DNA from: Cyanidioschyzon merolae
Lineage: Eukaryota
Assembly: GCA_000091205.1 (NCBI GenBank)
Contig: AP006500.2
Strand: one strand, 5' to 3'
DNA: 64,000 nt
The number at the start of each line of letters is the position of its first letter. Within the stretch, counting starts at the first letter, position 1. The notes beneath the pieces are model-generated. The model searched no databases, was not told the DNA's origin, and saw nothing but the letters and a program-made list of their open reading frames with translations. Shown in pieces: positions 28,065 through 56,793 of this stretch. A program made the position numbers and the translations under genes.

Positions 28065-28538
28065 TCACTTCGCGTACTCCAGGGTCCACTGTTGCGCAAT
28101 CTCCTTCGCTCGTGCAATGTCTTTCTTCCAGAGCTCTGCGGCTTCATTGTTAAGGGCATCCTCGGGGTTCGGCTCCGACATAAGCGCCTGTATCGACAAG
28201 AGCACGGTGCGAATCTGGAGCGCTGGACTCCAACGATCCTTCAGAATATCCAAACAGACCCTACCTAGCCGGTCGATATTTGGATGATAGATTTTCGTTA
28301 AAAACCGGGCACGCGGTGCTTGCATCGGGTACTCTGCGGGCAAGAAAAGCTCAAGTCGAAAGACACCGCCCTCGTAGGGCGAGCCCTCGGGGCCTGCCAG
28401 GATGACGTTGAAGTACCGCGCGTTCTCGTCGTGAACTGTAACGGAAATTCCCGGTACAGGATCCTTCGCAAGGCGTTCTGTCTCTTTAAGAATGCGCTTC
28501 GATAAATGTCCACTCATTCGTACGGCGAACGATACCAC
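28065..28538 (-). CDS. UBC13: Ubiquitin-conjugating enzyme E2 N (Ubc13).
   Basis: The 157-aa sequence is near-identical in pattern to Ubc13. Matching blocks include [91 protein letters not shown] and an HPN plus catalytic Cys. The stop is TGA. Confidence 0.92.
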
Positions 28539-31174: not shown

Positions 31175-32341
31175 TCAATGCAAAAGATGATCCACGGCGC
31201 CCAGACGTTCAGACCAGTGCATCCGCATCAGGAGGAGGCGCTCCCGGCCAAAATGCACATAGTCAAATGTTTCGCTCGGTGGATCAGCTGCCATGATGAA
31301 AGCCCAAACACTCCAGATCCAGTGACTCAGTAGGCTGAAAGCATTCGCCTCAGCGACAAGACGATCCCGTTCCAAGGTCGATACCGAAGCGCTACGGCAT
31401 CTCGAGCTGGTTGCGGTGTCTATTGCGTCGTCACTCTGTGAAAATGCTGACAACGATGCCAGATATGCTTCCGCGAAACGATGCTGCTCGGCTTCAGTCG
31501 GATATCGTGCAAACGAATCAAGCGGCTTCAAGCCACAGTTCTCCGTGAGACCCATCCATTCGTTGAAGTGGTTCCCAAGGTCATACGCCCGCGGTGCGTA
31601 ACCTGCATACTCGAAATCCACAAAACGAATCATCTGTTCCGTCGGATCGTAGAGTATGTTCGCACCAAGCAGGTCATTGTGGCAGAACACAATGTCATCT
31701 GCAGGCAGACGGTGCCGTAACTCTTTGAACTCGTTCTGTAAACGCGTTGGCTTGCCGTTGCAAAGCTCCTCAACCGGCAGGCAGTGCCGTTCCACAGCTT
31801 TCCTCAGCAGTCTCTCGCAGAACTCCCACTGGAGTGCTATTGCTTGGGCTCGTGGCAGTGTCTGTTCCGAGGGCCTAAAACAATGTAGCCGCGCGAGAGC
31901 GCTGGCGACTTGTGAATAGACTTGCTTGTCGTGCAGCGTGCGATAGTCGAGCGGCTTCCCAGTGAGAACGCCCTCTACCCTTCCGCGAGGAAAGATGCCC
32001 AGCAACGGCGGTCCAAGACCAGCGGCCGCTAGCTCTGCATACAAGCTGTTCTCCCGGCGACGGTTAAAAAAGTCACCGGAGCCAAAGATTCGAACGAGAA
32101 CCGCGGTGCCGGTAACTGTACTTGTACACCGGTACATTCGGTTCGTAACCCCACCCTGAACTCGCTCCACCGTGCAACACGAGGGCGCCCAGGCGTTATC
32201 TGAGAAGAGCTGCCCAAGGACTAGCAGCACCTCACGTTCCTCTGCCTCGGTAGCTCGAGCGGCCTGCGTCGCCAGTTCCACGTCTCGTCGCTTGACTTCA
32301 CCCCCCGCATCTTCAAGGGTTTGCAGCACCATTCTACGCAC
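31175..32341 (-). CDS. Choline/ethanolamine kinase.
   Basis: Brenner motif CHNDLLGANILYD and choline-kinase motif FVDFEYAGYAPRAYDLGNHFNEW. Confidence 0.85.
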   Translation of the reverse strand: MRRMVLQTLEDAGGEVKRRDVELATQAARATEAEEREVLLVLGQLFSDNAWAPSCCTVERVQGGVTNRMYRCTSTVTGTAVLVRIFGSGDFFNRRRENSLYAELAAAGLGPPLLGIFPRGRVEGVLTGKPLDYRTLHDKQVYSQVASALARLHCFRPSEQTLPRAQAIALQWEFCERLLRKAVERHCLPVEELCNGKPTRLQNEFKELRHRLPADDIVFCHNDLLGANILYDPTEQMIRFVDFEYAGYAPRAYDLGNHFNEWMGLTENCGLKPLDSFARYPTEAEQHRFAEAYLASLSAFSQSDDAIDTATSSRCRSASVSTLERDRLVAEANAFSLLSHWIWSVWAFIMAADPPSETFDYVHFGRERLLLMRMHWSERLGAVDHLLH

Positions 32342-33663: not shown

Positions 33664-35199
33664 ATGACGTTCGTGACGCTACCACTCTGTGCAAGCAGAA
33701 GCGTTGTACCTAGCTTGAAGTGTGCTGCCTGTCGGCGCGGAAGTCGTTTAGGGCTTGGCGGCCGATTAAGGTCGAAGCTGCGTTCCTCCCCTGGCTCGTC
33801 GTCTCTGAGGTGCCTGCAACCTAACGGGACACCTAGTGCAGGGCACCAGGGAAATAAAGCAGGAAATGTGAACACTTTTGGTAAAACTGTTCTTGTTCTT
33901 GGGGGGGATGGATTTTGTGGCTGGCCGACCGCTCTCCATCTGTCAGATCTGGGGTACAGTGTCGTAATTGTCGACAACTTGTCGCGGCGCAAGATCGATA
34001 TCGAGCTGGAGTGCGAGTCCTTGACGCCTATTGCGGCACCGAGCGAGCGCATCGCTGTTTGGAATGCCTTGTCCGATCGCGAGATTCGCTTTGAGTTTAT
34101 GGACGTTGCTCATGAGTACTGGCATTTGTTGGAGCTCATCAAAAGGGAGCAACCCTGCGCTATCGTGCACTTTGCGGAACAGCGGGCTGCACCGTACAGC
34201 ATGAAAGGGAGCCGCCAGAAACGCTATACAGTTGATAACAATGTGAACGGCACCATGAGCGTGCTGACAGCGGTCGTGGAGTCCAACCTGGATATCCATG
34301 TTGTTCACCTGGGCACCATGGGCGTCTACGGCTACGGCTCCAGTGGCGGCAAGATTCCCGAAGGCTACCTCGATGTCGTGCTGCCCTCCGGAGAGCGCCG
34401 CTCGATCCTGCATCCAGCCTACCCGGGGAGTGTCTATCACGCCTCCAAGTGTCTCGATGCGCTGCTGTTTCAGTTCTTTGCAAGGAATGATGGGCTTCGC
34501 ATAACGGATCTGCATCAAGGCGTCGTTTGGGGCACGTTCACCCAGAATACCATGCGCCATGAGCTCTTAATGAATCGTTACGACTACGACTCCGATTACG
34601 GCACCGTGTTGAACCGCTTTTTAATGCAAGCTGCATGTGGGCTGCCTCTTACGGTTTACGGAAGTGGTGGGCAGACTCGAGCCTTTATTCATATTAGCGA
34701 TACGTGCAAGTGTATCGCACTTGCGCTAGCAAATCCGCCTAATCGCGGCGATCGTGTCAAGATCTACAACCAAGTCGCAGAGACACATCGCGTGCGCGAC
34801 CTCGCGGCTCTTGTCGCCCGGAAAACGGGCGCCAGTGTGCACCAAATTCCCAATCCTCGGAACGAGGCCTCCGAGAACGAACTCGATGTGAGCAACCAGA
34901 ATTTTCGTTCGCTTGGCTGGGACCCTGTCACACTGGAGGAGAGTCTGCTCGAGGAGGTGGTTGGTGTCGCGGAAAGATATCGGCATCGCATTCGCCGTGA
35001 CAAGGTCATGCCCAGCAGCTTCTGGAACCGGGAGCGAGAAGAGGCGTGTCGCGCGAATGCGACAAACTCGAGCGACGCACTAGCCGAGATATCGGCTGCG
35101 GCGAGTTCCGAGTGGCGTGATGAGGTGTTAAAGCAGCTGGCCAATGGTGACGACAAGAAACTCGAGCGTATGCGCTCGGCGCTGCGAGATGAACCCTAG
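33664..35199 (+). CDS. SQD1: UDP-sulfoquinovose synthase (SQD1) with an N-terminal transit-peptide-like extension of about 75 aa.
   Basis: VLVLGGDGFCGWPTALHLS..VVIVDNL.RR..ESLTPIA......W.AL...I..F.D.....L.E.......IVHFAEQRAAPYSM..S.....YT..NNV.GT..VL.A......H.V.LGTMG.YG......EGY......HPA.PGSVYHASK..D.L..F......G.R.TDL.QGVVWG is collinear with plant and cyanobacterial SQD1/SqdB. The N-terminus is MTFVTLPLCASRSVVPSLK..RSKLRSSPGSSS. The stop is TAG. Confidence 0.9.
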   Translation: MTFVTLPLCASRSVVPSLKCAACRRGSRLGLGGRLRSKLRSSPGSSSLRCLQPNGTPSAGHQGNKAGNVNTFGKTVLVLGGDGFCGWPTALHLSDLGYSVVIVDNLSRRKIDIELECESLTPIAAPSERIAVWNALSDREIRFEFMDVAHEYWHLLELIKREQPCAIVHFAEQRAAPYSMKGSRQKRYTVDNNVNGTMSVLTAVVESNLDIHVVHLGTMGVYGYGSSGGKIPEGYLDVVLPSGERRSILHPAYPGSVYHASKCLDALLFQFFARNDGLRITDLHQGVVWGTFTQNTMRHELLMNRYDYDSDYGTVLNRFLMQAACGLPLTVYGSGGQTRAFIHISDTCKCIALALANPPNRGDRVKIYNQVAETHRVRDLAALVARKTGASVHQIPNPRNEASENELDVSNQNFRSLGWDPVTLEESLLEEVVGVAERYRHRIRRDKVMPSSFWNREREEACRANATNSSDALAEISAAASSEWRDEVLKQLANGDDKKLERMRSALRDEP

Positions 35200-36794
35200 A
35201 GCAGTTTACGCAGGTGGCTTGTTACCAAGGTCGCTCCGATCATGCGCTTGCGTGTCGCCAAGCGACGCTAGCAGAAAAGTGCGAATATAGAAACCACATG
35301 ACGTGCGGCCTTCCATTCGGATGAAAACGCTGTCCGAGAGACCGCATCCCAGATATAAGTTGTACCGCAAGGGCTACAAAAAGTAAGTCTAAAGCAACGC
35401 CTGAATCCTGAGACAATAGCATTCGACTCGATCGTTCGCGAAATGGGTATCGCGGACCCATCTGAGCGCATCTACCCAGGACGTGCGGATCCGCACCTGA
35501 GGCCGTCGATGGATAGGATCCACCGTTTAAAGCGCGCTGTTCGCCACGGAAAACCCTACAGCCACCAAGCCAGTTGCCGTGAAGCTCCTCAATGCATCGG
35601 CCAATGCTTCTTCCGACACGGCATTTCCATTGCATGCATATTCAAATCGTACCTGGTACGCGTCTATGTGATCAGCGTATACGTAGCAGCCAGCTGAGAC
35701 GCAGTCGACACCCGCTCCGTTTCCTAAGCTTTCCGAGTAAATATTAAAACTCGTACTGGAAAGAGCCACTGCGCAGACGCAGCCGTCAAGGCGAAGCTCG
35801 CTGATGGAAGCGTCTGTGGAGACATGCGGCATGCCAAGTGCACACGAGTCCCGTTAACCTTTATCAGAAGTGCGTGGGCTTCGTTCCTCAGCGAAGCTGG
35901 TTCAGATACAGGTATTTGAAATAAGATCAGCGCTGAACACTCTGCAGATTGCCAAACCCTAAAAACGCTGTGACACCAAGTACGAAAGAGGCCGCGAACG
36001 TGCCCCACTCGAAAGCACGTCGGGCAAGGCGAAGCTGCGTCTTCCTCGGTTAGAGCAAACGGCGCTTCGGCTCGACACTCGTTCGGCCATAGCGCTGTCC
36101 ACCACGAGCAGCAGAGGCAGCTGCGGTGCAAGGACCGTCGTAGCTGCCACGGAAGTGCTGCAACAGCGCTCACCGAAGCAGCGCACGACTCCGAGTCCGT
36201 CGCGGGGTGGTTCATGAAAACCTGCCCTCGGACTAGGTCTGTCTAGCTACGTACCAACGCCTGTCATGATAGTACGACACCAACTCACATCATCGAAACG
36301 ACAACTCGGGGCAGTATACGCAACACTTGTGGCGCAGTAGAGGCTCGTGTAAAACGGTTTTTAATGCACCTGCTGTTGCCAGCTGTGTCGCCAGCAACTA
36401 AGCTTGCGCTCTGCCGGCTCGCGGGGGTATTTTTGATTACCGGAACATTGACAAGGACACGGAATCCCGCTTTACGTGAGGAAGAGCGGCAATCAAGGAT
36501 CATGCTGCGTATCTTTCTATCAACGGAATGTTTGCAATGACGCGGAATACCTGGTCGCGCGATGGACACCGGTCTCCGGGAAAACCATCCAAAACGCCAC
36601 ACCATACCGGCAAGTTCCAGTGGGCAATACCCTCGCTTCCCGTTAGTCATTCTGGTCACTTGCGACCGATCCACCGCAGGCGCTTTCTCGTCGACGCAAT
36701 GAACAATGCTGCTGCTGCCTTGCACGCGAAGCCGGGCGACTCGAATTGCACACTATCGCTGCAGGCAACGCATCCGTTGGAGCTCCGCATGCAG

Positions 36795-37450
36795 ATACCA
36801 GTATGAAGAGGCGCGAAAAGTCATTCCAGGAACCGGCCTTGAATACCCGAACATCCACCATACCAGAATGAAGAGGCACGAAAAGTCAGAATGGTAGTGT
36901 GCCCTATGTACCCGAACATCCACCACACCAGATTGAAGAGGCACGAAAAGTCAGAATGGTTATGTGCACTACGCACCCGAACATCCACCATACCAGTATG
37001 AAGAGGCACGAAAAGTCATTCCAGGAACCGGCCTTGAATACCCGAACATCCACCATACCAGAATGAAGAGGCACGAAAAGTCAGAATGGTTATGTGCACT
37101 ACGCACCCGAACATCCACCATACCAGTATGAAGAGGCACGAAAAGTCATTCCAGGAACCGGCCTTGAATACCCGAACATCCACCGATACCAGAGTGAAGA
37201 GGCACGAAAAGTCAGAATGGTTATGTGCACTACGCACCCGAACATCCACCATACCAGTATGAAGAGGCACGAAAAGTCATTCCAGGAACCGGCCTTGAAT
37301 ACCCGAACATCCACCGATACCAGAGTGAAGAGGCACGAAAAGTCAGAATGGTTATGTGCACTACGCACCCGAACATCCACCATACCAGTATGAAGAGGCA
37401 CGAAAAGTCATTCCAGGAACCGGCCTTGAATACCCGAACATCCACCGATA
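36795..37450. repeat. Tandem array of about 5 copies of a 131-bp unit made of two related subunits of about 65 bp.
   Basis: ORF-track peptides starting MHYAPEHPPYQYEEARKVIPGTGLEYPNIH recur at 37094, 37225 and 37356, giving a 131-nt period. Both subunits share cccgaacatccacc(g)ataccag.(a/g)tgaagaggcacgaaaagtca. Confidence 0.85.
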
Positions 37451-37542
37451 CCGAAATGCAGCGCGACGCGTCCAGGAAAAAATCGCGGCGATATCGAGGC
37501 ATCCGTTGCGTACAAGCAGGTGGAGGTCGCTCTCCAGGAACG

Positions 37543-39369
37543 ATGTTCGTAGCTTTACCAAGTGTGCTGTTCACCAGCAAACCCTCAAGGATACGTACTG
37601 TTAAGATTGAAAAGCGTAGAACGTTATTTGCCTGCGACAGGGCGAAAGCAGGCACCGATGGGAACGCTAGCAACGCTGCGGCGTCAGCACCGAAACCCTC
37701 TGCTGCGAGCAGCGGGCGATCTGCTGGTACTGCAGCTCGAGACCAGGTAACGATCAGTGCCCAGACGAGTTCGTCAAACTCGCGGACGATAGATCGAAGC
37801 ACCGATTCATCGCAAACAGTACAGGTTGCGTCCATGTTTGACTCGATGACGAAGCGCCGTGAGGCTGCTCGCCGCGAGGCGCTGAGCATCGTCGTGCTGG
37901 GCGCGTCCGGGGATCTGGCCCGCAAGAAGACGCTCCCGGCGCTTTTCTCACTCTACTACCACGATCTGCTGCCGAGCGACTTTTATGTGGTCGGCTACGC
38001 ACGATCAAACATGACGAGCGAGGCGTTCCGGAACACGATCAAGTCAAGTTTGACCTGCCGCGTTATCGAAGGCCCCGAGTGCGCACGCAAAATGGAGCAT
38101 TTCCTCTCGCGTTGTTTCTACGTTTCCGGAACTTATCATGAAACTACTGCATTCCGAACGCTGGACGAGTTTCTCGTGAACGAGTTTGAGAAAGAGCGCT
38201 GGAATCGCGGGGTTCCGACCAATCGCCTCTACTACTTGGCGATTCCTTCCAACGTCTTCGCTGAGGCCTGTCGCGGCATCGCCCATGCCCACACCAAGCC
38301 TCCGGAGTCGACCAAGGGCTGGATGCGGGTCGTCTTGGAGAAACCGTTCGGGAGAGATCTGGATACCTTCCAGACCCTGCACCAGGAACTGCAATTGTAC
38401 ATTAGCGAGGAACAAACCTTCCGCATTGACCATTACTTGGGCAAGGAGCTCGTTCAGAACGTGCTGGCGCTGCGCTTTGCGAATTATTTTTTGGAGCCTC
38501 TCTGGAACAACCAACACATCCAATCTATCCAGGTGACGTTCAAGGAGAACTTTGGTGTCGAGGGACGCGCTGGCTACTTTGACCAGTACGGAATCATCCG
38601 CGACATCATGCAGAATCACCTGCTGCAAATGGTGGCGCTCTTTACGATGGAACAGCCGGCTTCTTTGAACGCCGAAGATATTCGTGACGAGAAAGTGAAA
38701 GTCTTGCGCAGTTTGGAAACGCTACGTGCTACAGATTTCGTCATCGGGCAGTATATGGGGTATCGGGAGGAAGACGGCGTTCGTCCGGGCTCCAAGACGC
38801 CTACGTTTGCAGCGTGTCGGATGAACATTCGAAACCGACGCTGGGACGGTGTACCGATCCTGGTCAAAGCGGGGAAGCATTTGGATGAACGCCTCGCGGA
38901 AGTGCGTGTCACGTTCCGCAGTGTGCCTGGTAGTATTTTCTCGCTTGCGAATACCCTGCCGAACAATGAGCTTGTTGTTCGCGTTCAGCCCGACGAAGCC
39001 ATTTATCTTCGCATCGTCAGCAAATCCCCGGGGTTGACCTCTCGCCTAGAAGAGGCGCGTCTGACGCTATTCTACCGGACGGCCTGGGAAGAAGCGCACG
39101 ACATTCCCGATGCCTACGAGCGCCTCATCTTGGACGTCATCTATGGTGACAAATCGCTCTTCATACGAAGCGATGAATTAAAAGTCGCCTGGGAGAAGTT
39201 TACGCCGGCGCTTCACGAACTCGAGCAGAGCGACCGCTATCGACCGGTACCGTACGTAGCGGGCAGTCGCGGCCCTGCCGAAGCCGACTACCTTGCCGCG
39301 CGCTACGGATGCGTTTGGGCCAGCGACCTTGACATTGGCGGCAAGCGACTGCAAAGCAAGGTGCCGTAA
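37543..39369 (+). CDS. G6PD: Glucose-6-phosphate 1-dehydrogenase, probably the plastid-targeted isoform. The listed ORF 37225..39369 extends 5' into the repeat array; the start is more likely ATG 37543 or 37456.
   Basis: LSIVVLGASGDLARKKTLPALF..GYARS (NADP-binding), the exact active-site motif RIDHYLGKE, then ..QNHLLQMVALF..MEQP.. The N-terminus is MFVALPSVLFTSKPS.. followed by a Ser/Ala/Thr-rich presequence. The stop is TAA. Confidence 0.85.
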   Translation: MFVALPSVLFTSKPSRIRTVKIEKRRTLFACDRAKAGTDGNASNAAASAPKPSAASSGRSAGTAARDQVTISAQTSSSNSRTIDRSTDSSQTVQVASMFDSMTKRREAARREALSIVVLGASGDLARKKTLPALFSLYYHDLLPSDFYVVGYARSNMTSEAFRNTIKSSLTCRVIEGPECARKMEHFLSRCFYVSGTYHETTAFRTLDEFLVNEFEKERWNRGVPTNRLYYLAIPSNVFAEACRGIAHAHTKPPESTKGWMRVVLEKPFGRDLDTFQTLHQELQLYISEEQTFRIDHYLGKELVQNVLALRFANYFLEPLWNNQHIQSIQVTFKENFGVEGRAGYFDQYGIIRDIMQNHLLQMVALFTMEQPASLNAEDIRDEKVKVLRSLETLRATDFVIGQYMGYREEDGVRPGSKTPTFAACRMNIRNRRWDGVPILVKAGKHLDERLAEVRVTFRSVPGSIFSLANTLPNNELVVRVQPDEAIYLRIVSKSPGLTSRLEEARLTLFYRTAWEEAHDIPDAYERLILDVIYGDKSLFIRSDELKVAWEKFTPALHELEQSDRYRPVPYVAGSRGPAEADYLAARYGCVWASDLDIGGKRLQSKVP

Positions 39370-39973
39370 AAACCAGACAGTCCGACTTCCGCCTAGTCTG
39401 GATCGGAGGAGTTTCCAGATGCCCTGGCGATTCCCGAATCCCGGTCGGCGCCTACGAAGCCTACCATCAAGCCGGGCATGCACCGCGAGTAGTCGACGCG
39501 CACAACGCGCTCTACGAAAATCCAAAAGCTCGCGGCACCAGCACTTTACAGCCACAAAACTTGTCTCATGAAAGCGGCGAATAAAACCTCTGTCATCGTC
39601 ATCTGTGAATGTACGGGTGAGGCATCGCGGATCGCGCAGCACAGAACACCTCCACGAGATACACCAGTGAATCGTCGCGATAGCACGTCCGGCTGTGATC
39701 TTTTCGGATACACACACAAGACATGCACTGATGGATTCGCTCAGCGGATACCGCTCGACATGCAATGCCCAGTGCCTGCATCCATTCGTGAACGACGCTC
39801 ACACCTGCACTACGCAACAAGCATCAGCGAGACTTGCGATTCGCCACGCAAAGGATGTACCCGCATTGCCGAAATCGTAGCCGCTATCAAAGTGCAGCGT
39901 TCAACGCATGAAAAACGACTCCGCAATTCCAGTCTATCCTTTTGCTGCATCAACAGTCTCGTTTCGGAAGCGA

Positions 39974-41527
39974 TCAAGCAGGTTTGAAGAATGCCCGAGC
40001 GAGCTGGCGGCGCAGCCAGCGCAGCCACGAGAGCGATCGCGGCAAGCCGAGGCCTCCAAGTGCTCGGAAACGAAAATTGTTCATCGCTCGATTGTACTGC
40101 ACATTGCGGATCCAGGCGGTTGCAGCACACCAACTCCAGCGCTCCGCCTCGCGACGAGCAGCGTCGCCCATCCGTTTGCGCATGACGGCATCGCCGAGTA
40201 GGGCACATACATAGGTTGCAGCCTCGCTGGTGTTGCCCTTGGTGTACAGAAATCCTGTCTCGCCGTGAACAATCAGATCGGGGATACCGCCAGCTGCTGT
40301 GGCAACTACAGGCACACCCGATGCCATGGCCTCCAGTACCACAAACCCAAGGGTTTCGCTCTCTGAGGGCATCACAAATACGTCGGCACAGGCGAATGCT
40401 CGCGATAAATCATCGCCGTGTAGTTGTCCGGTCATGACCACGGGCAGACCTGCGAAATGTCGCCGTACCGTCTCGGCGTACGGTCCGTCACCGACGAAAG
40501 CGAGTCGCGTTCCGGGTGGACAACAGGTGAGGATCCGCTTCAAACTCAGCAGATTCTTCTCGGCACCGAGTCGCCCGATGTAAACCAGCAGCGGCGCGGT
40601 AGGATGGCCATCTGTGAGCCGCGCCCGCATCGCACCACCATCATCGTTGCGGAAACGCGGATGGAAGCGCTCCGTGTTGATGCCTTTTCGCCAGAGGTCC
40701 ACGCGCTCGATGCCGTGTTGTCGAAGTTCTGCGCATATCTGTGGAGACGTCGCCAGCGTCAGGTCTGCGCGATTCAAACAGAAACGCATGAGTGTCCACG
40801 CCAGTCCTATGAGAATCCCTAACCCATAAGTTTTCGCATACATTGGTAGATGTGTGTGATACGATGCAACAAGTGGCTTGCGCAGAACACGCGCCATGAG
40901 AAGGATGGCAAATACCAGGAATCCGGGTGTTGCCAAGTGGATGAGGTCAGGATCGAACTCGCGAACGCGCTGCAGCAAACTGCGCCTTCCGAAAACCATG
41001 CCACTACCAAAGCCGATTGAGAGCGTAATGCGTGGATAGAGTGCAAACTTGAAACCCCGGATGGTTATAACCGGATAACCGAACACTTCTTGCGGTGCGT
41101 CCGGCGAGTTATCGGGGGTTATGATCAATACCTCGTCGCCGGCCTCTTTCAAATACCGTAATAGCTCATTAAAACGATTCGAATACCCGGACACGTGCGT
41201 GAACGGCGTCGGTTCAACCACGAGACACACTCGACGCCGAGGCGCGCGCCGCAGGTCAACGAGGTTCGGGTCATCGCCCGACGTCGGCTGCGGGTACACG
41301 GGACCAGTGGCGACACTCGCCAGTGCGAACGCGCAGCTCGTCCGCGGTACACCCGGTGCCCGCAGCCGGACTGGCGCATAGCGTCGCCTCAAGAGAGCAA
41401 CCTCTAAGGGACACAGCTGCGAGCCGTTTGATGGCGCGCTCTGCCGCCTCAACGTCCGCGCGCACGCGAAAGCGCCAGTGTCCCCGTTGTTAACGCCCAG
41501 GAATGCCGCTGTTCGACCAGTGAACAT
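39974..41527 (-). CDS. SQD2: Sulfoquinovosyl-diacylglycerol synthase (SQD2-type GT4 glycosyltransferase) with an N-terminal presequence.
   Basis: RVCLVVEPTPFTHVSGYSNRFNELLRYLKEAGDEVLIITPD..FGYPVI. The match continues through ..YHTHLPMYA..ADLTLATSP.., ..RLAFVGDGPY.E.. and ..GDDLSRAFACADVFVMPSESETLGFVVLEAMASGVPVVATAAGGIPDLI, collinear with plant SQD2. The N-terminus is MFTGRTAAFLG.. The stop is TGA. Confidence 0.85.
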   Translation of the reverse strand: MFTGRTAAFLGVNNGDTGAFACARTLRRQSAPSNGSQLCPLEVALLRRRYAPVRLRAPGVPRTSCAFALASVATGPVYPQPTSGDDPNLVDLRRAPRRRVCLVVEPTPFTHVSGYSNRFNELLRYLKEAGDEVLIITPDNSPDAPQEVFGYPVITIRGFKFALYPRITLSIGFGSGMVFGRRSLLQRVREFDPDLIHLATPGFLVFAILLMARVLRKPLVASYHTHLPMYAKTYGLGILIGLAWTLMRFCLNRADLTLATSPQICAELRQHGIERVDLWRKGINTERFHPRFRNDDGGAMRARLTDGHPTAPLLVYIGRLGAEKNLLSLKRILTCCPPGTRLAFVGDGPYAETVRRHFAGLPVVMTGQLHGDDLSRAFACADVFVMPSESETLGFVVLEAMASGVPVVATAAGGIPDLIVHGETGFLYTKGNTSEAATYVCALLGDAVMRKRMGDAARREAERWSWCAATAWIRNVQYNRAMNNFRFRALGGLGLPRSLSWLRWLRRQLARAFFKPA

Positions 41528-43129: not shown

Positions 43130-44119
43130 ATGTGTGTACGCTATCGGCGGTCGAAGGCAGATCGTCCTGGTCCGCCTTCGATATCGCCCTCGGGGAAGCA
43201 TGAAGAAAAGGAAATGGCAGATCCTAGGATGCAGGAGGTGCAGGAGAGCGACTTTGTTGTTGGCGCGGACCCTGGGGCTACGAACATCGTAACCATCGCA
43301 GTACCCAAGCGTGCGGAAAATGGCATTCGCGGCAACTTGCATCAGAAAGATATGCGTATTTTGAGGTTCTCGAGAGCGAGATACTATCGAGAATCGGGAA
43401 TCATGAATACGAGGAAGAAAATCGAGACATGGAATGCAGGAATGAATGAGCACCAGGAAGCTATGAGCCAGGTGACGAGCCGAGGAGCGGACTGTCGAGC
43501 TTTTCGGGAGTTCATGGAAGTTCGTGTTGCCCATTGGGATGCGCTGTGGGAGGAGTATACCAAGCCCCGGTGGGCTCGTTTGCGTATGAATCTATACGGT
43601 GGGAAGCAGCGGGCCTTTACGAATTCTTTCAATCAGTTGAGTGCCCTGAAGGAGGATGAGAGTCAGGGGCTCGTAGTAGCGTACGGGGCAGGGCGATGGA
43701 AGACCCAAAAAGGGACTACGCCAGCTCCAACGACGAGAACGTGTAAGGAGTGCGCACGGCGTTTTGTTACAATACCGATAGATGAGTTCCGAACGTCCTA
43801 TACACACCATGAGCTGGGGTGTACGCTTCAGAGAGTGGAGATGGAAAAGCGCCAAAGGAGTCCTGAGGAAATCGCAAAGTACGGACCGCTGACGGAGGAG
43901 CAAATGGAAAGGAGAGCGAAAGTTCGAGGATTGCTTGCATTAGTAAGTACAACCAACGATGGCAAGAAACGTATGGAGTTTGTGAACCGAGAATTCAATG
44001 CCGCTATGAATATCAGGAGATGTGCGCTGTTGGAGAATAGACCTCCGGAGTCGACAAGAGGGAACTTGTTGGACAACCTCTCAAAGTGGAACTATATGAG
44101 AAAAAATTGGAAGAAGTAG
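43130..44119 (+). CDS. TnpB/Fanzor-like RuvC nuclease module (329 aa).
   Basis: RuvC-I-like [15 protein letters not shown]; the zinc-finger remnant [11 protein letters not shown] followed by [13 protein letters not shown]; the RuvC-III signature [15 protein letters not shown]. The canonical RuvC-II (vvEdLn) position reads [10 protein letters not shown]. Confidence 0.65.
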
Positions 44120-44326
44120 TTGGTGGCCCGTCGAGAAAGACGGGGAGGCGTCCGCACACCAGTTGGCGACGCTATATCTAACACGCGTTCGCCGCCACTA
44201 CTGTACACCGCTGGCGACTGCTTGCGACCTTTGAAAAGCTTTCGGTCGACACGAAACACCCCTAAAAGGCGATACCGTACATCCCTAAGCAACTCGATAA
44301 AAGATTTGCAACCTCCCAGCGCACGC

Positions 44327-45493
44327 ATGCTTCGGTACAGCTTCATTAACGCCGTCTGGCCGTCCAAGTCATGCGGCAGGGTCCACGTTGAGCGCCATCG
44401 AAAGCAGAAGACACAGTCTGTACAAACTGCACAGCGCTGGAAACTGCGGGCGAACTTGAACCGGCGAGGTCCAGACTCAGCGACCTGGGATCGGCAGGGC
44501 GGTGGCCAGGCGGAGCGCCTGCTTATGGAGCAGGTACTGCAACTGAGGCGAGAGTTAGATGCCTTGCGAGCGGAGAATGAGAGTTTGCGTAAATATCGTG
44601 TCAACGAGCACCTGCTCGTGGATGCCGACGACTCTGTCACAACCGAGGACGGACGGACGCGTTGCGGCAAGCACGGGGAGCGCTCGCGCTATTTACCGGT
44701 CTATTCAGTCGCCCCTGAAGAGGTTCTAAGCCGCGTCATCCCCGTCATTGGACCTAACCCAACGATCGAGCAACTCGACGCAGCAATCACGCTGTCGTTC
44801 CAAGTACGCGATGAGCTGGTGAACCGACGTGGGCTCGAGCGTTACGAGGATGTCATGGCTGGTCGATTCCTCGTGTTCCAGACCAGTGAACTACCTGTCA
44901 AGGGGGTCCAGAGAGTCGCCCTTCCTGGTACGGTAGGATCGATGCGCTGGGCGTCGGCACCAGTTGGTATCCTGATGCCTGCCTCCGAGCTGGGACTGGA
45001 GTCCTTCTACCCGAACGCTCCGACGGATGTCAACTGTCTTGTCATTATCGAGGCTGATTTCGATTCAGAGATCCCCGCGGATACCCTGGCATCACCTGAC
45101 ATCATTCGCGACATCCGAGACGGTACCAAAGACGTGCTCGACCGTATCGAAAACGTTTGGTTCGACGAGCAAGGCCGCGCGTCTCGCGATGCCGGCTTTC
45201 CGAGCTCGCTCACTGAAGAGACAGAAACCGACGAGGACGAGCAACCAGACGAAAACGGTGACGGACCGGAATTCAGTCCGGGGAAATTTTACCTCTGGCT
45301 GGAGGAGAGGCCTCCGCAGGGCGTCGAGTCCGGCGAGGAGCCAGCCCACAGGTGGCACGTTCGCTGGTATGAGCGTCGTCCAGACCCCGCGGTTGACGGT
45401 GTGGAATGCGTTGGCCGCGTGATTACCGTGATAGCACCGAGCGCTTCAAGGCGTCGCACCAAGACGTTTGCCGAAGAGGACGATGTGTTCTAA
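44327..45493 (+). CDS. Hypothetical protein with a coiled-coil segment and an acidic C-terminal region. The listed ORF 44120..45493 reads through from inside the element's right end; the start is probably ATG 44327.
   Basis: A long ORF with LQLRRELDALRAENESLRKY (coiled coil) and an acidic tract TEETETDEDEQPDENGDGPE. No family recognised. Confidence 0.45.
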   Translation: MLRYSFINAVWPSKSCGRVHVERHRKQKTQSVQTAQRWKLRANLNRRGPDSATWDRQGGGQAERLLMEQVLQLRRELDALRAENESLRKYRVNEHLLVDADDSVTTEDGRTRCGKHGERSRYLPVYSVAPEEVLSRVIPVIGPNPTIEQLDAAITLSFQVRDELVNRRGLERYEDVMAGRFLVFQTSELPVKGVQRVALPGTVGSMRWASAPVGILMPASELGLESFYPNAPTDVNCLVIIEADFDSEIPADTLASPDIIRDIRDGTKDVLDRIENVWFDEQGRASRDAGFPSSLTEETETDEDEQPDENGDGPEFSPGKFYLWLEERPPQGVESGEEPAHRWHVRWYERRPDPAVDGVECVGRVITVIAPSASRRRTKTFAEEDDVF

Positions 45494-48579: not shown

Positions 48580-51500
48580 ATGTCGACGACCTCGTCTTCG
48601 TCAACGGGAGCTGTTTCGGCATCACGTGCTGTAGCGTCGCCGCTCATGAACGGCAAGTCTGGACTTGCTGATGCAGCTCCGGTGCTAACAGCGTCTCGCT
48701 CTACACCACCACCACCACCACCAGCAGCAGCAGCACCAGGCACGAGCACGCGAGCACGAGCAGCGTCGCAGGGTGCGCACGCATCAGAGCGCTGGGGTGC
48801 TGCGAATATGACCAGCTTGCCCGCTCTGGCGTCAGGCTCGTCACAACTTCTCGCTGGCTCGACACACGCGCTCGTAGCGCTTCACGATGCCTCCATTGAA
48901 CGCGCGCTTCGGCGCCTGGAACGCGCGACGGGCTCAGAGAGGCGCTACGAGGCAGCACAACGGCTCCGCATGCTCTATGAACGCAAGTTTCAGACCATGA
49001 AACAGCCTGAGGCCATAAGTGTGCTCAGTGACGCCTTGGCATATCGTTTGCAGGCTATGATCAGCTCGGGGAGTCAGCGGGATCGACTAGCAGGCCTGAC
49101 TGGCCTCAGCGCGCTCATCGAGACGCGCGGCGAGGCGTACCGCACCAAAGTCCAACGAACCTACAACGGCTTGCGTCCTATCCTGAGACGTCCTCCAGAC
49201 TGGGAGGCTGCTCGCGCTGCCGCTGATATGCTGGGCCGGCTCAGTCGACTCGGCGGGGTTCTCGTGAATCGTTTTGTCGAAGCGGAGGCCGTTCGTGCAC
49301 TCGAGTACCTGAATACCAATAGCGTGCTTCTGAAGGGAATGGCAATCATGGTGCTCAATGCTTTATGTGAGCACGTTCCCGCATCCATGTATACCTCGAG
49401 AGTTCAGCTGGCGCAGGTGGTGTGGCGAGGCCTCACCGACAGTCGACCGATTCTTCGCCTGGAGAGTGCCAGCTTGCTGCGCTCCTTCCTCGCCCTACTG
49501 GAACAGCGCGCATCCGATGATAGCGCCCGCACCTGTCAGATGATCATTCAGCGTTGCCTTGAGATGTTGATCTCCGATGAACGAGAAACAACCCCACCAG
49601 AAACGCACGGCAGTTTGTTGGCGCTCCACGAACTCGTGCGGAACCGCTTCTCGGCAACGTTCCTAGACGAGCATATCAGTCGAATACGGAAGCGTCTCGA
49701 GAGCTTACGTCTGACTCGCGATAACCTCATCCGAGCGGCGATTCTCCAGCTGCTTCCAGACTTGGTGCGCCTGGATCGAACACTCATCGAACTCGGCATG
49801 AGCATGGCGCTCGAGAACGAGGACCTGGTTGCCCTGGGGAAACTGGCGGTAGCAGTGGGTCCTACCGCTGCGCTCCCTTGGATGGAGCACATCTTTGTGG
49901 TACTGCGTAATAGCGAGGTCGCAGCGGCAGCGAAACACGAATGCATCGCGCTGTTGGCCCCGATCATCGTGGAAAGCGAACAGAGCGAGCGTCTCGCTGA
50001 GCTCCTGGAAGACTCCATCCTAACGCAGGGTCTGAGTCCCTCGCTAGTCGAAGCCCTGGAACGCGTTTGTGAGCATGTTCCGAGTCTGCGAGACCTGGTT
50101 CACGGGCATGTGCTGCGCCTGTGTGCGGAAACGACGGATATCGCGTGCGCGCTGCAGGCATTGCAACGTTTCACCTTCGGGCGTCGACCCTGTTTGGACG
50201 ACTACGTCCGCCAGCATGTCCTGCCCTACATCTACGGCAAACGCAGCCTCAGATCAGCAGCCTTCGCTGCCTCGCTGCACGTCTTGACTGCAGCCGTCCA
50301 GTCAGCGACTCCAGGGCGGCCGCTTCAACCGAAAATCTTCGAGACGCTACAACAACTGATTGTGGTGGTTGTTGCTGACCCCGACAGCCGCATACGCGCA
50401 GAGGTACTGCTGCACTTGGCCAAGCCGGCGTACTTTCCAGTCTTTGAACGCTACCTTGCGCAACCGGAACTCTTGCGAGCGCTCTGCTTGGCACTTCACG
50501 ATGAGGATGCCACAGTACGCGAGCGAGCACTGAGCCTCGTCGGCCGACTCTCCACGGTGAATCCAGCGCATACGTTGCCCTCTCTCCGTCGCCTCTTCAT
50601 GAATCTACGCATCATTCTCGAATGTGAAAGCGAACCGCTGCAGGGATCCCAGGAGGATGCACTCCGCCTTTTGCTCCGCCTCGTCCAGGATGCACCGCAG
50701 CTGATCGAACCCTACACACCCACAACAGCCAAACTACTGGTGCAACGGCTCCAGCAAAACTCGACTAGTGCAGTTGCCGTCGACACTTCAGTGATACACA
50801 CACTCCACAGCATCGCATGCTTGGCAGAGCGTGGCGTTGCAGCAGAACTCCAAACGCTCCTGCATGATGCCATGCCGCACCTGCTGCGCATCCTGCAACA
50901 CACCTCGGTAGAGGCGGACCTTCGGGAGGCAGTTTGTCGGGCGCTTTCGAGTCTAGCGCGAGCTGCAGGTGCAACCACGGAGCTCTACACCCAATACCCC
51001 AGTTTGCTGTCGACGCTGCTGCGCATGCTGCGAACCGAAACCAACTTGTTCGTGCGTCTGGAGATAGAGCGAACGCTGGGGACGCTCGGAGCGGTGGACC
51101 CCGACCGTACCGCACCGCTACTGCTCGACCGGACGCGGTATCCGTATACACGACTCGAGTCGCTCACGGAGGTGTATCACCAGCAGACCGCTCCAATGCA
51201 TTACGCGCCACGCCCAACCGCTACCGGAACTGGAGCTACGAATGCGTTTACAACGGATACGCGCTGCGGACTCGTGGCCGAGGAGCCGGCCTTGCCAGGC
51301 ACTGCTGCTGCTGCTGCTGCTGCAACGACGACGACGACAACGACGACACTTACTGGACAAGCACTGCGTGCCCAGTTGCGCTTTGAAGCGCCGAACGAGC
51401 TCGAGACGCTGGTAGGTCGACTCCCGCACCCGTTCACGGCAAACGAAGAGTACTTTCCCTCGGCAGCACTGGATGCCTTGCATCGCATCCTCGCGAATGC

Positions 51501-54500
51501 CAAACTGACGACACTTCACTACGACACTGTCGGTGCGATTGTGAACATCATGAGCAGTCTCGGGATGAAGTGTGCACCTTTTCTATCCGTGGTGGTGCCG
51601 CGCCTGCTCTGGATGCTACGGCCGCGAACCGAGGATACGCATGACTTGGCGTTCCGCGAGTACGTCATCCGAGGCCTGGCTAGTGTCGTGCTCTCTGCCC
51701 GCCAATACATACGCCCGTACGCAGCTTCGCTGGTGGCGCTCATTCTCGAGTACTGGCCGCTGCAAGTCCTGCATCGCTCGATGTTCGCCCTAATGGAATG
51801 CCTCCGCGTAGCGCTCCATGATGAATTCCGACCCTTTGTGCCGGTTTTGCTGCCGCTCATCCTGCCCTGGATGTCGTTGCGGGTGCTCAAGGTGCTCTTG
51901 GTGTTCGGCACCCACACCAGTGAGTACGTGGTGCTTGTTTTACCGCCCGTGATGCGTTTCCTGGAGGATGCCACCCGTCCGCTTGCGGCTCGCATTGAGG
52001 TTCTCAAGCGCTTGCCGCGACTCTTCGCCATGCTCGATCTATCGGATATGGCGAGCCAGCTGATGCACCCGCTGTGTCGGATGCTGCGCACCAGTGAATT
52101 CCAGTGGCACGCTCGGCAACTGCTCGAGTCGCTGCTCCCTCGTCTGGGATTAGACGCGGCCTACTACACGTTGCTGGTCCGTGAAATGCTCCTTGGAGAT
52201 GCAGCATCGGCATCAGCAGCAGCAACCGGCAATGACGACGAAGACGATGACGGCAACGACGACGAAGACGATGACCAGCACCCAACGGATGAAGCCAGTG
52301 CTCGTGGTGCAGCGGCATCGACCGAGTCTGCCTCGACACAGGCCGGTGCTGCCCTGCAGTCGAGCAGTGCGAGTGCACTTCACCGCCTCGCACGCTATCG
52401 CCATGAACGCACGGCGCTGAGTCGCTCCGAGTCGCTTGACTCGTTGAATGGTGTACCGCGTACCACGTCACTGGGTTCACTCGCTGACCTAGCCTCTGGG
52501 GATGCGTTGCTGGCTCACAGTCCCGACTCGTTGCTCGACAGCACACACGTATCGCTGGTTGCGTCAGCGTCGATGTTGGATTTGCAGCAGCAGCTACAGC
52601 AACAGCAACAGCAACAGGCGCTCCTGGGAAGCGGTGCCAGCAACACCACCACCACCAACACCAACAACAACAACAACAGCGGCCACAATAGCGCCCGTCG
52701 TCACCACGTCAATGAGAAGATGCTCCAAAAGGCGTGGCAAGTCGGTCGACGCACCACCCGCGACGACTGGAACGACTGGATGATGGCGCTTGCGTCGGCG
52801 CTTTTCCGGGAGAGCGGCTCACCGTCGCTGCGCTCATGTGCGCGACTCGCTGAGGTGCACCCGCCACTCGCTCGTGAACTCTTCAACGCTGCCTTTCTGA
52901 GCTGCTGGACGGAACTCTCGGATCCGTGTCGTGCGTCACTGGTGCGCAACCTGGTACTTGCGCTCTCCAGCGAGTCCATACCACTGGACGTGCTGCAGGT
53001 GCTCCTGAGCCTCGTCGAGTTCATGGAACATGACGAGAAGCCCTTACCCATTGACCTTCGACAACTAGCTGCCATGGCGTTCCGCTGCGGTGCCTACGCC
53101 AAAGCGCTCCGCTACAAAGAGGCCGAGTATATGCAGAACCCGGCATCAGCCATGGAAGGTGACGATAGTCTCATTGCGATCTACGAAGCGCTGGGTCAAC
53201 GGGAAGCAGCAATGGGCGCCCTGCTCGATGCCGAACGTCACCAGGTCACGATACGCCACGAGGCGTGTTACGAGCGGCTCCAGCAATGGGACCTCGCGCT
53301 CAGCGCCTACGAACGTCAGGGACCAGCGCACTCGTTTGCAAACCGGCGCGGTCGGATGCGCTGTATGGCACAACTCGGCGAACTGCACCGCATGGAGGCG
53401 CTCTGTAACGACCTCTGGTCCGAGGCAGCCGAGCAGCCGTCGCTTCGCCAGGAACTCGCTGAGGAAGCGGCTCAAGTGGCGTATCAGCTCCAGCTCTGGG
53501 ACAAGTTTACGGAACGCGTTGCGTATACGAGTCGCGACAGCATCCGCGGGAATGTGTTTCGGGCGATGCTGGCTATTCATCAGGGCGACGATGAGGCTGC
53601 TCGCGGCTATATTCGAGCGGGGCGTCGACTGCTGGATACCGGGGTCACAGCACGCGTCGGTGAAGGCTATCCCCGCGCCTATGGCGATATCCTCCTGACC
53701 CAGCAACTGGTGGAACTCGAGGAATGCCTCATGGTAAGGCAGCGTATTCTACCGCAGCGCCACGTGGTGGAACAGCTCTGGAATACGCGCTTGTACGGAT
53801 GCCGTTTCGATTATACCACGTGGCAACAGACGCTGCTCGTTCGACGGCTCCTCTTGGAACCTCGACACGACAAGGACGTGTGGTTGCGCTTTGTGAGCCT
53901 CTGTAGGCGGGCGAATCGACTCCCGATGGCCAACGAGGCACTCGCCATGCTCCAGGATGAGCAGCATCCCGATCCCGAGGTAACGTATGCTTCGCTCAAG
54001 TTGTGCTGGTCGCAGGGTCGGCATCACGAGGCCTACGAATGCCTCCGGCGTTGTGCGGAGCAGCCGGTACCCTCCGCTCGGCTCGCTGCACGTCGTTTTC
54101 TCAAGCTATGCGTCTGGGGTCGGGCGTTACGCGCAGAAGGCACCAGCACGTTCGTCTCTTCGCCTTCGTCATCGCTACGGTGGCATACGTTGATGGAGCA
54201 CGCGCGACGAGCGGTGGTATCGGATCCGTCGTGGTCATCCGGCTGGCATACCTGGGCAGCGTTGAACGCTGATGCCGCCGCAGCACACAGTACCGGGCAT
54301 CGCTTCGGGGGTGCCTGGCCTGCTCGACCGACAGCGGTAGCGGCGGCTGAGTCTAACGTGCTGGTTCGAGCGTATGTGCTCAACGCGGTGAACGGCTTCT
54401 TCCGAGCGATCGCACTAGGTGAAAGCTACGCGGAACAAGCGCAAGATGTGCTCAAGCTGTTAACGCTCTGGTTCCGCTACGGTGCGGTCCCTGAGATCGA

Positions 54501-56130
54501 ACAAGCGCTCCTGAACGGTTTTGCGGAGACCAATGTCGACATCTGGGTCGACGTGATTCCCCAGATTGTCGCTCGTCTGCACTCGCCGGTACCACCGGTG
54601 CAGGCCGGTGTTCGAGCGCTCCTAATTCGCATCGGGCGAGCACATCCACAAGCGCTGGTGTTTCCGCTCGCAGTGGCCGCCAAGTCCAGTAATGCGCGTC
54701 GACGTGAGGCCGCTATCGACGTGCTCCAGGCGCTGCGTCTCGAGTCACCGGCGCTGGTTGCCCAGGCTGAACTCGTATCCCGCGAACTGGTGCGTATCGC
54801 GGTGCTCTGGCCCGAAATGTGGCATGAGGCACTCGAGGAGGCCTCGCGCGTCTACTTTGGCGAACACAACGTGCCGGGCATGTTGGCGATTCTGTCGCCG
54901 CTGCACGACCTGGTCGAGGCAGGCCCTAGCACCGCACGTGAGGCTAGCTTCATTCGCGAGTTTGGCCGTGAACTCGCCGAGGCTCGCGAATGGTGTCGGC
55001 GCTATCTGGCGAGTGGACGCGACTCCGACCTGAATCAGGCCTGGGAGCTCTACTACTCCATCTTTCGCCGGATCAACAAGTCGCTCTCCAGCATGACACA
55101 GCTGCAACTCGCGGAGGTGTCGCCAGCGCTGCTGGAGGCTCGGAACTTGGCGCTGGCGGTGCCCGGCACCCGCGAACAGGTCACCATCGTCTCGTTTGCA
55201 CCGGTGTTGAACGTGATCAGTTCGAAACAACGGCCGCGAACGCTGACCATCTACGGTTCCGATGGCCACGAGTACCCGTTCCTGCTCAAAGGACACGAGG
55301 ACCTGCGTCAGGATGAACGCGTGCAACAGTTTTTTGGCCTCGTGAATACGCTCCTGCCGCCCGAGATGTCCATCGTGACGTACGCGGTGCTGCCGTTGAG
55401 TCAGCAGGTCGGCCTCATTGGTTGGGTCAAGAACTGCGATACGCTGCACGCGTTGATCCGCGAGTATCGCGAACAACGCAAGATCATCCTGAACGTGGAA
55501 CATCGGATCATGTTGTCTGCAGCACCGGACTACGATAACCTGACGCTGCTCCAGAAAGTAGAAATATTCGAGTATGTGCTCGCGAATACCTCGGGCAATG
55601 ACTTGGCCAATATCATGTGGCTGCGTAGTCGCAGCGCGGAGATGTGGCTGGAGCGACGCACCAACTACGCACGTTCGCTGGCGGTCATGTCCATGGTAGG
55701 GTATATTATCGGCCTCGGGGATCGACACCCGTCGAATATGCTCATCACACGCGACACCGGCAAAGTCATTCATATCGATCACGGTGATTGTTTCGAGACC
55801 GCGATGCATCGCGAGAAGTATCCCGAGAAAGTGCCGTTCCGGTTGACGCGGATGTTGGTACGGGCACTGGGTGTCTCGGGTGTCGAGGGCATCTTTCGGG
55901 TGACATGTGAGTCGACCATGGAGATTCTGCGTGCGAACAAACCCGTGCTCATGGCTATGTTGGAAATCTTTGTGCACGATCCGTTGCTGGTACGAACGCT
56001 GCAGCCGGCGGCGGCACCGGGGGCAACAACCACGGGCCTCGAGGCGACTGGGTTGGCGGCTGTTGCAGCCGGCTCGCCGCTGCATACACCGGCAGTGTGG
56101 CCTCGGCAGGCTACTGGAGCAACAGCAGCA

Positions 56131-56169
<39 letters not shown>

Positions 56170-56793
56170 GCAGCAGCAACAGGGCAATGGGGCACGGTAT
56201 CGACGTTTCCTGTGCAAGAGGCACGCCTTGGCGAGCGTGCTGGCGAAGAGCAGCCGCAGCCAGCGTCGACGCTGGTGCAAGTACCTCGAGCGCCAACCAG
56301 GATGCGACGTGTCGACATGTCGGGTGCAGAGGCGACGGCTGCGGCTGCAGCTGCGGGCGAGGCGTCCTTGTCGTTGCGGCTGCTGCAGGGCACCATGTCG
56401 TTACGTGCAGCGCTTCGTCTGGAGCAGTCCAATGCCGGCACAGTCGAGGAGGTCGCTGAAGAGGGTATCGCGGAGACGCCGTCGCCGCTGACAACGCGTC
56501 GACCAGGTGCGGGTAGTCTAACGCCGCGCACGCTGGGCAACGGTACCTTGACGACAGGTGCCGGTGCTGGTGCCGGTGCTCCCACGATACTTCCCGAGGA
56601 TCTACTCGGCGATGAAAACCGCGGTGAACGCGCTGTTGCGATCGTGCAACGCATGTCACAGAAACTGAGTGGGCGCGACTTTGATCCACGACGTGTGCTC
56701 ACTGTCGCTGAGCAGGTCGAACGCCTGATTCAGCAGGCAACGAACTCAGAGAACCTGGCACCTGCTTATGTGGGCTGGTGCAACTGTTGGTAG
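48580..56793 (+). CDS. TOR: Serine/threonine-protein kinase TOR (target of rapamycin), 2737 aa, intronless, with several low-complexity insertions. The true start may be an internal Met.
   Basis: N-terminal HEAT repeats and a FAT region. FRB domain: WHEALEEASRVYFGE.NVPGMLAILSPLHDL.E.GP.T..E.SF...FGREL.EA.EWCR.Y..SG...DLNQAWELYYSIFRRI. PI3K-like kinase domain: LLKGHEDLRQDERVQQFFGLVN.LL and GYIIGLGDRHPSNMLI.R.TGKVIHIDHGDCFE.AMHREKYPEKVPFRLTRMLV.ALGVSGVEG.FR.TCE. FATC ending ..AYVGWCNCW, then TAG. Confidence 0.95.

Follow-up and report, generated by a model that had tools for sequence, protein, structure and literature searches.

Sulfoquinovosyl diacylglycerol (SQDG), the sulfolipid of thylakoids, is made in two consecutive steps: SQD1 forms uridine diphosphate (UDP)-sulfoquinovose from UDP-glucose and sulfite, and SQD2 transfers the sulfoquinovose onto diacylglycerol. 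In prokaryotes such as Synechococcus, Prochlorococcus, Corynebacterium and Trueperaceae the same two steps are encoded close together, by sqdB and sqdX. In Arabidopsis, where we take At4g33030 to be SQD1 and At5g01220 to be SQD2, the genes lie on chromosomes 4 and 5, unlike the linked pair described here, and these locus codes bear out an earlier sequence-only reading of the present DNA (the original prediction), according to which SQD1 and SQD2 are unlinked in plants. The linked pair belongs to the red alga Cyanidioschyzon merolae 10D and lies in a 64,000-nucleotide stretch of chromosome 18 (the window, by which we mean the whole stretch of DNA analysed), where SQD1, a gene for glucose-6-phosphate dehydrogenase (G6PD) and SQD2 stand within the segment CMR011C–CMR015C. 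With a probability of about 0.6, we consider that SQD1 and SQD2 have stayed close as part of the ancestral gene order of the Cyanidiophyceae, along with a UBC13-type gene, and do not form an operon.

Organization of the SQD1-G6PD-SQD2 locus

The genes on which the comparison is built are the following:

28065..28517, minus strand: UBC13/UBE2N-type ubiquitin-conjugating enzyme, a synteny anchor outside the pathway
33664..35199, plus strand: SQD1, predicted UDP-sulfoquinovose synthase, CMR012C, BAM82303.1, 511 amino acids (aa)
37543..39369, plus strand: G6PD, CMR014C, BAM82304.1, 608 aa
39974..41527, minus strand: SQD2, predicted sulfoquinovosyl-diacylglycerol synthase, CMR015C, BAM82305.1, 517 aa

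The last three appear as long open reading frames (ORFs) with these coordinates and strands in the ORF list, and their products have exactly the sequences of BAM82303.1, BAM82304.1 and BAM82305.1, three consecutive GenBank entries of C. merolae 10D. From the SQD1 stop to the SQD2 stop there are 4,775 bp, and the total span of the pair is 7,864 bp, so the ORF coordinates and strands agree with the earlier description of two genes 4.8 kb apart with a single gene between them. SQD1 and G6PD are separated by 2,343 bp, and the stop codons of the convergent G6PD and SQD2 genes by 604 bp. SQD1 and SQD2 are also convergent, which makes promoter sharing between them impossible in the window. No tRNA or Rfam RNA was found in the region.

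The genes themselves are already known, being annotated, published and used in lipid maps of this model alga, as is evident from the exact 10D protein matches and from published tags, localisations and primers; for example, the published quantitative PCR primers for CMR014C map inside the G6PD ORF (38598-38659). Sato N. et al. are said to have dedicated a 2016 paper (BBRC) to identifying the C. merolae sulfolipid genes. In the accessible literature we found no report of the SQD1-SQD2 linkage or of its conservation. What is new here is thus the conserved linkage, not the genes, and the observation is a modest one.

Conservation of the linkage in red algae

SQD1 and SQD2 are linked in three of the four cyanidiophycean genera sampled. 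In Cyanidiococcus yangmingshanensis the locus (L005) follows the gene order of the window from the ethanolamine kinase gene (EK) through to the TOR kinase gene, and its SQD2 is 86% identical to that of C. merolae. In Galdieria sulphuraria (L092) and G. partita (L174) the order is RRM (RNA recognition motif protein)-RPL13e-UBC13-amino-acid permease-GT4(-)-SQD1(+), where SQD1 stands head-to-head with a gene for a glycosyltransferase of family 4 (GT4) of 434/445 aa that is a co-ortholog of SQD2, the start codons being 150 bp (G. sulphuraria) and 128 bp (G. partita) apart. Four genes, RRM, UBC13, SQD2 and SQD1, are common to this Galdieria locus and the window. The pair is thus similar to that of the window in its orthologous SQD1, its co-orthologous SQD2 and its UBC13 neighbour, and differs in the head-to-head orientation, the short distance of 128-150 bp, the lack of G6PD and the presence of a second, unlinked SQD2 paralog.

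The anchor gene was assigned by a PDB search, in which the ubiquitin-conjugating enzyme (E2) of the window scored 222 bits to UBE2N/UBC13 and about 137 bits to the next E2 class. It lies 5 kb from SQD1 in the window, is 86% identical to the Cyanidium caldarium copy near SQD2 and G6PD (L007), and segments of it match, at 62-82% identity, the Galdieria copies, which are located two genes from SQD2/SQD1.

Cyanidium caldarium lacks the linkage. The order at L007 is TOR-X-SQD2-[Ank/RING]-G6PD-[CXXC]-HCO3 transporter-UBC13, with an SQD2 that is 76% identical to the window SQD2 over the best local alignment, and SQD1 is found on a separate contig among unrelated neighbours; the tags CDCA08G2297 and CDCA10G3090 place the two genes on different chromosomes. 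Between SQD2 and G6PD this alga has a 1,025-aa ankyrin/RING gene (11946..15023 of L007), and a CXXC zinc-binding gene follows G6PD; neither has a counterpart here in the window, and the segment with the HCO3 transporter and UBC13 has the opposite orientation to that in C. merolae. Outside the Cyanidiophyceae, SQD1 and SQD2 of Porphyridium are on different contigs and unlinked, and no GT4 gene lies within 10 kb of SQD1 in Chondrus or Rhodosorus. Metagenomes scanned with SQD1 gave for the most part operons of prokaryotes and short transcripts of eukaryotes, and yielded no data on linkage in eukaryotes. The original prediction had noted that related genomes devoid of the linkage would point to a chance arrangement. 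The outcome is divided: the linkage holds in Cyanidiococcus, with the same order, and in both Galdieria species, where SQD1 adjoins an SQD2 co-ortholog, but not in Cyanidium caldarium, Porphyridium, Chondrus or Rhodosorus.

The unlinked genes of Cyanidium and Porphyridium, and also the top-scoring Galdieria SQD2 loci, suggested that the linkage was born only in Cyanidioschyzon/Cyanidiococcus; this was ruled out by inspection from the SQD1 side in Galdieria, where a second SQD2 paralog is adjacent. Collinearity reaches 86% among the three Cyanidiales genera, and gene order is poorly conserved between Cyanidiales and Galdieriales (Cho et al. 2023, PMC9812998). The SQD1-SQD2 linkage is therefore conserved above a poor background of synteny, a comparison that carries no formal P-value.

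The Galdieria paralogs

Galdieria has two classes of SQD2:

L092 8492..9850 and L174 8470..9872: short class, adjoining SQD1
L008 10001..11787: long class, unlinked to SQD1

Within the clade of eukaryotic SQD2 the two classes are sisters (100% bootstrap), which indicates a Galdieria-specific duplication and makes both copies co-orthologs of CMR015C. The duplicated unit apparently consisted of the amino-acid permease gene and SQD2, and the duplicate locus L008 has only SQD2 in common with the window. In the linked short paralog the N-terminus is acidic and about 40 aa long, unlike a transit peptide, so this copy may not be a plastid SQDG synthase. In the relocated, unlinked long paralog the N-terminal extension measures about 145 aa and resembles a presequence. 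From these N-termini, the paralog pair may reflect sub- or neofunctionalisation. Furthermore, the red-lineage SQD1s including those of Galdieria form one clade (77% bootstrap), which argues against a separate bacterial acquisition of the Galdieria pair.

Identity of SQD1, G6PD and SQD2

Besides the exact GenBank matches, profile, PDB and homolog evidence upholds the three names originally given to these genes. Residues 72-456 of SQD1 align to residues 10-394 of the Arabidopsis SQD1 crystal chains in the PDB search (1i24/1qrr/1i2b, E about 1e-96 to 2e-95). The motifs GGDGFCGW at 80, GTMGVYG at 217 and YHASK at 258 align to GGDGYCGW, GTMGEYG and YHLSK of 1i24; we take the first to be the Gly-rich NAD site, and the Thr of GTMGxYG and the Tyr-x-x-x-Lys to be catalytic, by analogy with the roles in the Arabidopsis structure. 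The best NCBIfam match is the UDP-sulfoquinovose synthase model NF041015, covered from position 2 to 383 of 384, but at 330 bits the protein stays under the equivalog cutoff of 575. NCBIfam models are made for naming bacterial and archaeal proteins. In our judgement the PDB and ortholog evidence outweighs the missed NF041015 cutoff, and the product of 33664..35199 is taken, as in the original prediction, to be a putative UDP-sulfoquinovose synthase of the extended short-chain dehydrogenase/reductase type.

SQD2 is a two-domain GT4 enzyme of the GT-B fold, with Pfam Glyco_transf_4 at 114-287 and Glycos_transf_1 at 310-459 and an EX7E motif at residue 391 (ETLGFVVLE), and is 100% identical to BAM82305.1. 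Its top 120 homologs are from red algae, diatoms and other algae, many of them named SQD2 or sulfoquinovosyltransferase, and it is 35-41% identical (scores of about 200-270 bits) to the GT4 genes that directly follow sqdB in prokaryotes. A different GT4 subfamily had been named as the outcome that would speak against the assignment; NCBIfam places 39974..41527 in no other GT4 subfamily, the best alternative scoring 124 bits against a cutoff of 480. In the SQD2 tree the sampled eukaryotic sequences unite before joining the sampled SqdX, at a node that carries no bootstrap value. By these comparisons the product is predicted to belong to the red-algal SQD2 clade, that is, to SQD2/SqdX rather than to another GT4 subfamily.

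G6PD has the Pfam domains G6PD_N and G6PD_C and passes TIGR00871 (546 bits, cutoff 400.6). It contains the motifs GASGDLARKK and RIDHYLGKE; the CX7C pair found at residue 172 is a candidate for the redox-regulatory cysteines, a similar pair being present in plant plastidic isoforms. The enzyme is the entry point of the plastid oxidative pentose-phosphate pathway, and published work states at the level of the pathway that the whole of it is plastidic in C. merolae. The product of 37543..39369 is regarded as a putative plastid isoform.

All three proteins have N-terminal extensions before their conserved domains (71 aa in SQD1, 113 aa in G6PD and 97 aa in SQD2), which are basic with few acidic residues and have Phe at position 3, 2 and 2, respectively. 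In red algae and glaucophytes, transit peptides typically have a Phe close to their first residue. The earlier description of presequences with Phe and with hydroxylated and basic residues fits well, although Ser plus Thr, 21% in SQD1 and 26.5% in G6PD, amount to only 13% in SQD2; the plastid-type extension attributed to G6PD is Ser/Thr-rich as well as basic. For the plastid localisation itself we follow the literature: green fluorescent protein fusions of CMR012C and CMR015C localise to the plastid, and EK (CMR011C), whose N-terminus is acidic unlike the three plastid-type extensions, is localised to the endoplasmic reticulum (Mori et al. 2016, PMC4928187).

Neighbouring genes, spacer and mobile element

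Further features around the three genes are:

31175..32332, minus strand: ethanolamine kinase EK, CMR011C (Pfam Choline_kinase, 197 bits)
36795..37452, no strand: minisatellite of 65/131-bp units (Tandem Repeats Finder and self-blastn)
43130..44119, plus strand: degenerate TnpB/Fanzor-like transposable-element ORF in the SQD2 upstream region, outside the pathway

EK, with its first ATG at 32332, and SQD1 are divergent, with a spacer of about 1.3 kb between them. EK is collinear in Cyanidiococcus and is not beside SQD1 in Cyanidium or Galdieria. The spacer of 2.3 kb between SQD1 and G6PD contains the minisatellite, which consists of about 10 copies of the 65-bp unit or about 4.7 of the 131-bp unit (96% matches in the 131-bp register) and has its end about 90 bp upstream of the G6PD start codon, which places it in what is probably the promoter. 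A tblastx comparison of this spacer with Cyanidiococcus gave no coding conservation. The tag CMR013C would fall in the spacer, where no tRNA, Rfam RNA or conserved ORF was detected, and is probably a withdrawn ORF call.

The TnpB/Fanzor-like ORF has a second copy at about 12432..14138 (plus strand, 83% nucleotide identity by self-blastn), and is present in multiple copies in hot-spring metagenomes with 65-88% identity. It has no match in Pfam, NCBIfam or PDB, its exact sequence is not in the protein collection, and the copy beside SQD2 is missing at the Cyanidiococcus and Cyanidium loci. About 150 copies of the element CMe-1A have been described in C. merolae (Bao & Jurka 2013). On the basis of motifs, copy number and this literature, 43130..44119 is most likely a member of the Fanzor1 family CMe-1A. 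The ORF ends with a stop codon at 44117-44119 and shares its frame with the ORF 44120..45493, with one stop between them. The latter contains a conserved gene (homology from about 44444) that adjoins TOR in all three Cyanidiales genera, and the in-frame juxtaposition is probably coincidental. The TOR kinase itself is encoded at 48580..56793 (plus strand, 2,737 aa; mTOR_dom, FAT, FRB, PI3_PI4_kinase and FATC domains), and it adjoins the SQD2 block in Cyanidiococcus and Cyanidium too.

Chance expectation and regulatory signals

The chance that a pre-specified pair lies within 3 locus tags is about 0.1%, and for every 1,000 pairs of consecutive-step enzymes about 1 is expected to be neighbours, so one genome alone proves little; it is the conservation across species that lifts the SQD1-SQD2 arrangement above chance. 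Among the 66 nuclear lipid genes listed by Mori et al. 2016 (PMC4928187), analysed in locus-tag order, 5 pairs lie within 3 tags where 1.9-2.6 are expected (P about 0.04-0.12), and P ranges from about 0.007 to 0.12 across window sizes and assumed gene densities. Other close pairs are CMF185C/187C, CMM125C/126C and CMT072C/074C. The window itself has four lipid genes in ten locus tags, namely HCD (CMR006C, 16683..17609), EK, SQD1 and SQD2.

A scan of the window for the P1BS motif (GNATATNC) found 17 sites where 9 are expected, none of them upstream of SQD1, and is uninformative. The upstream regions of SQD1 and SQD2 have a slight excess of common 8-mers under a lenient shuffle, but no word of k>=8 is conserved in all four SQD1 and SQD2 upstream regions of C. 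merolae and Cyanidiococcus. In addition, a published nickel-stress transcriptome paper lists CMR015C as down-regulated and does not list CMR012C, and the supplement of the dataset has no entries for these locus tags.

Comparison with prokaryotic sqdB-sqdX and the origin of the red-algal genes

As a prokaryotic sample, 80 genome loci with SqdB relatives 60-65% identical to the window SQD1 were analysed. An SqdX-like gene starts 33-230 nt 3' of sqdB on the same strand in 24 of them, and 42 tandem pairs were found in all when the metagenome scan is included; they occur in marine Synechococcus, Prochlorococcus, actinobacteria and Deinococcus-like bacteria. G6PD is present in none of the 24 listed sqdB-sqdX genome loci. 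The original prediction saw in the C. merolae locus a likeness to the cyanobacterial sqdB-sqdX arrangement, which the comparison does not sustain: the prokaryotic genes are in tandem with short gaps, whereas those of the window converge across a distance of 4.8 kb, have G6PD between them, are monocistronic and are provided with presequences. The arrangement in the window is not operon-like, and that in Galdieria is divergent, not tandem.

The identity of red SQD1 with SqdB is 60-65%, whether the latter comes from alpha-proteobacteria, actinobacteria, Deinococcus-like bacteria or alpha-cyanobacteria. The window SQD1 is nearly as distant from other red-algal SQD1s (60-70%) as from bacterial SqdB. 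In the phylogeny of Sato 2019 (PMC6946739), red SQD1 groups with alpha-cyanobacteria and alpha-proteobacteria (type 3), and SQD2/SqdX is sister to cyanobacteria (type 2); the differing tree types argue against a joint transfer of the two genes. Our identity pattern is consistent with the non-green origin of red SQD1 proposed there. As for the co-divergence of SqdB and SqdX, prokaryotic partners at 60-70% SqdB identity have 43-45% SqdX identity, and the red-algal pair, with 63-67% for SQD1 and 37.5-40.5% for SQD2, falls slightly under this relation in a test that is weak and non-discriminating.

Evolution of the linkage

The identities, coordinates, synteny and orthology described above are most economically explained if SQD1, SQD2 and the UBC13-type gene were already linked in the cyanidiophycean ancestor. 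SQD1 and an SQD2 co-ortholog would then have stayed directly adjacent, head-to-head, in Galdieria, while Cyanidioschyzon and Cyanidiococcus would have kept the pair in convergent orientation with G6PD between, and the linkage would have been lost once, in Cyanidium. G6PD would have come beside SQD2 later than the linkage of SQD1 with SQD2, in the ancestor shared by Cyanidium and Cyanidioschyzon. The three nuclear genes for plastid enzymes would be transcribed independently from separate promoters, and we favour preservation of the linkage by inertia, perhaps plus weak selection. Cyanidium without the linkage, and the acidic N-terminus of the linked Galdieria copy, make the linkage look dispensable. 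This ancestral state, and the largely neutral history attached to it, are what we infer, and several points weigh on the other side. The retention of a pathway pair across a poorly collinear split could itself reflect selection; the ancestral state rests on four genera and on the anchors UBC13 and RRM, and UBC13 orthology on subfamily and identity rather than on a genome-wide paralog survey; the trees are neighbour-joining trees of modest taxon sets; flanks of 10 kb might miss a looser linkage in red algae with large genomes; and the plastid location of this G6PD isoform is putative.

Selection of this kind would act if SQD1 and SQD2 were kept close to coordinate their expression, for example under phosphate or sulfur limitation, in Galdieria through a common bidirectional promoter, in Cyanidioschyzon through a common chromatin neighbourhood, a domain that G6PD and EK may share. 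Such co-regulation, which the original prediction had put forward next to co-transfer, would account for the linkage in three of the four genera despite the poor gene-order conservation between Galdieriales and Cyanidiales, for the mere 128-150 bp between the start codons in Galdieria, for the mild clustering of C. merolae lipid genes and for the company of EK and HCD, but we think it unlikely: the convergent genes of the window can have no common promoter, neither a conserved upstream word nor a P1BS site ahead of SQD1 was seen, Cyanidium manages without the linkage, the linked Galdieria paralog may not be the plastid enzyme, the functionally unrelated UBC13 is kept in the same block, and under nickel stress only CMR015C is listed as down-regulated. 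Also considered was that red SQD1 and SQD2 entered the nucleus jointly, as a fragment of a bacterial or cyanobacterial sqdB-sqdX operon. Tandem pairs are indeed common among prokaryotes, red SQD1 is much closer to their SqdB than to Arabidopsis SQD1, and the two genes are direct neighbours in Galdieria. However, their orientation in red algae is head-to-head or convergent and never tandem, the genes are unlinked in Porphyridium, Chondrus, Rhodosorus and Cyanidium, the two proteins belong to different types in Sato 2019 (PMC6946739), and red SQD2 lies 4-6 identity points further from operon SqdX than expected from the SqdB/SqdX relation, if by a weak test, all of which leaves this origin improbable.

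Pure coincidence would mean that random rearrangement in compact genomes produced the neighbourhoods of C. merolae/Cyanidiococcus and of Galdieria on separate occasions. The expected background of neighbouring pairs, the differences in orientation and intervening genes between Galdieria and C. merolae, and the unlinked state of Cyanidium, which branches between them, would all be in keeping with this, but it is already disfavoured by the anchor genes: RRM and UBC13 accompany SQD2 and SQD1 in both places, UBC13 adjoins the SQD2-G6PD block in Cyanidium as well, and the duplicate Galdieria locus L008 shares nothing but SQD2 with the window. We hold it to be very improbable. Equally improbable in our view is a combined history, in which the linkage would be the trace of one bacterial-type sqdB-sqdX operon in the nucleus of the red-algal ancestor, kept for >1 billion years by selection for co-regulation and only in the earliest-branching red algae with compact genomes; if true, it would explain why red SQD1 is closer to bacterial and alpha-cyanobacterial SqdB than to plant SQD1. 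Compared with these alternatives, a retained ancestral gene order would mean that a sulfolipid gene pair stayed linked across the deepest split of the Cyanidiophyceae even though gene order was largely scrambled. The linked pair is relevant, too, to the debated origin of SQD1 in the red lineage, which is possibly non-cyanobacterial. Moreover, C. merolae is tractable by homologous recombination, and its linked genes and the unlinked ones of Cyanidium offer a natural and experimental contrast for asking whether the proximity of primary-metabolism genes affects their regulation in a compact eukaryotic genome.

Comparison with known systems

Compared with Arabidopsis SQD1, the C. merolae enzyme acts in the same pathway and in the plastid, and the fold and the catalytic motifs are kept. 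The identity of the two proteins is 44.7%, which is consistent with a different bacterial ancestry (cf. Sato 2019). With the neighbouring-gene pairs and metabolic clusters of other eukaryotes, the locus has in common that consecutive steps are encoded within a few genes of each other over several genera. It differs from these clusters in that two genes only are involved, that they belong to primary metabolism, that their association is known from gene order alone, and that it is dispensable in Cyanidium.

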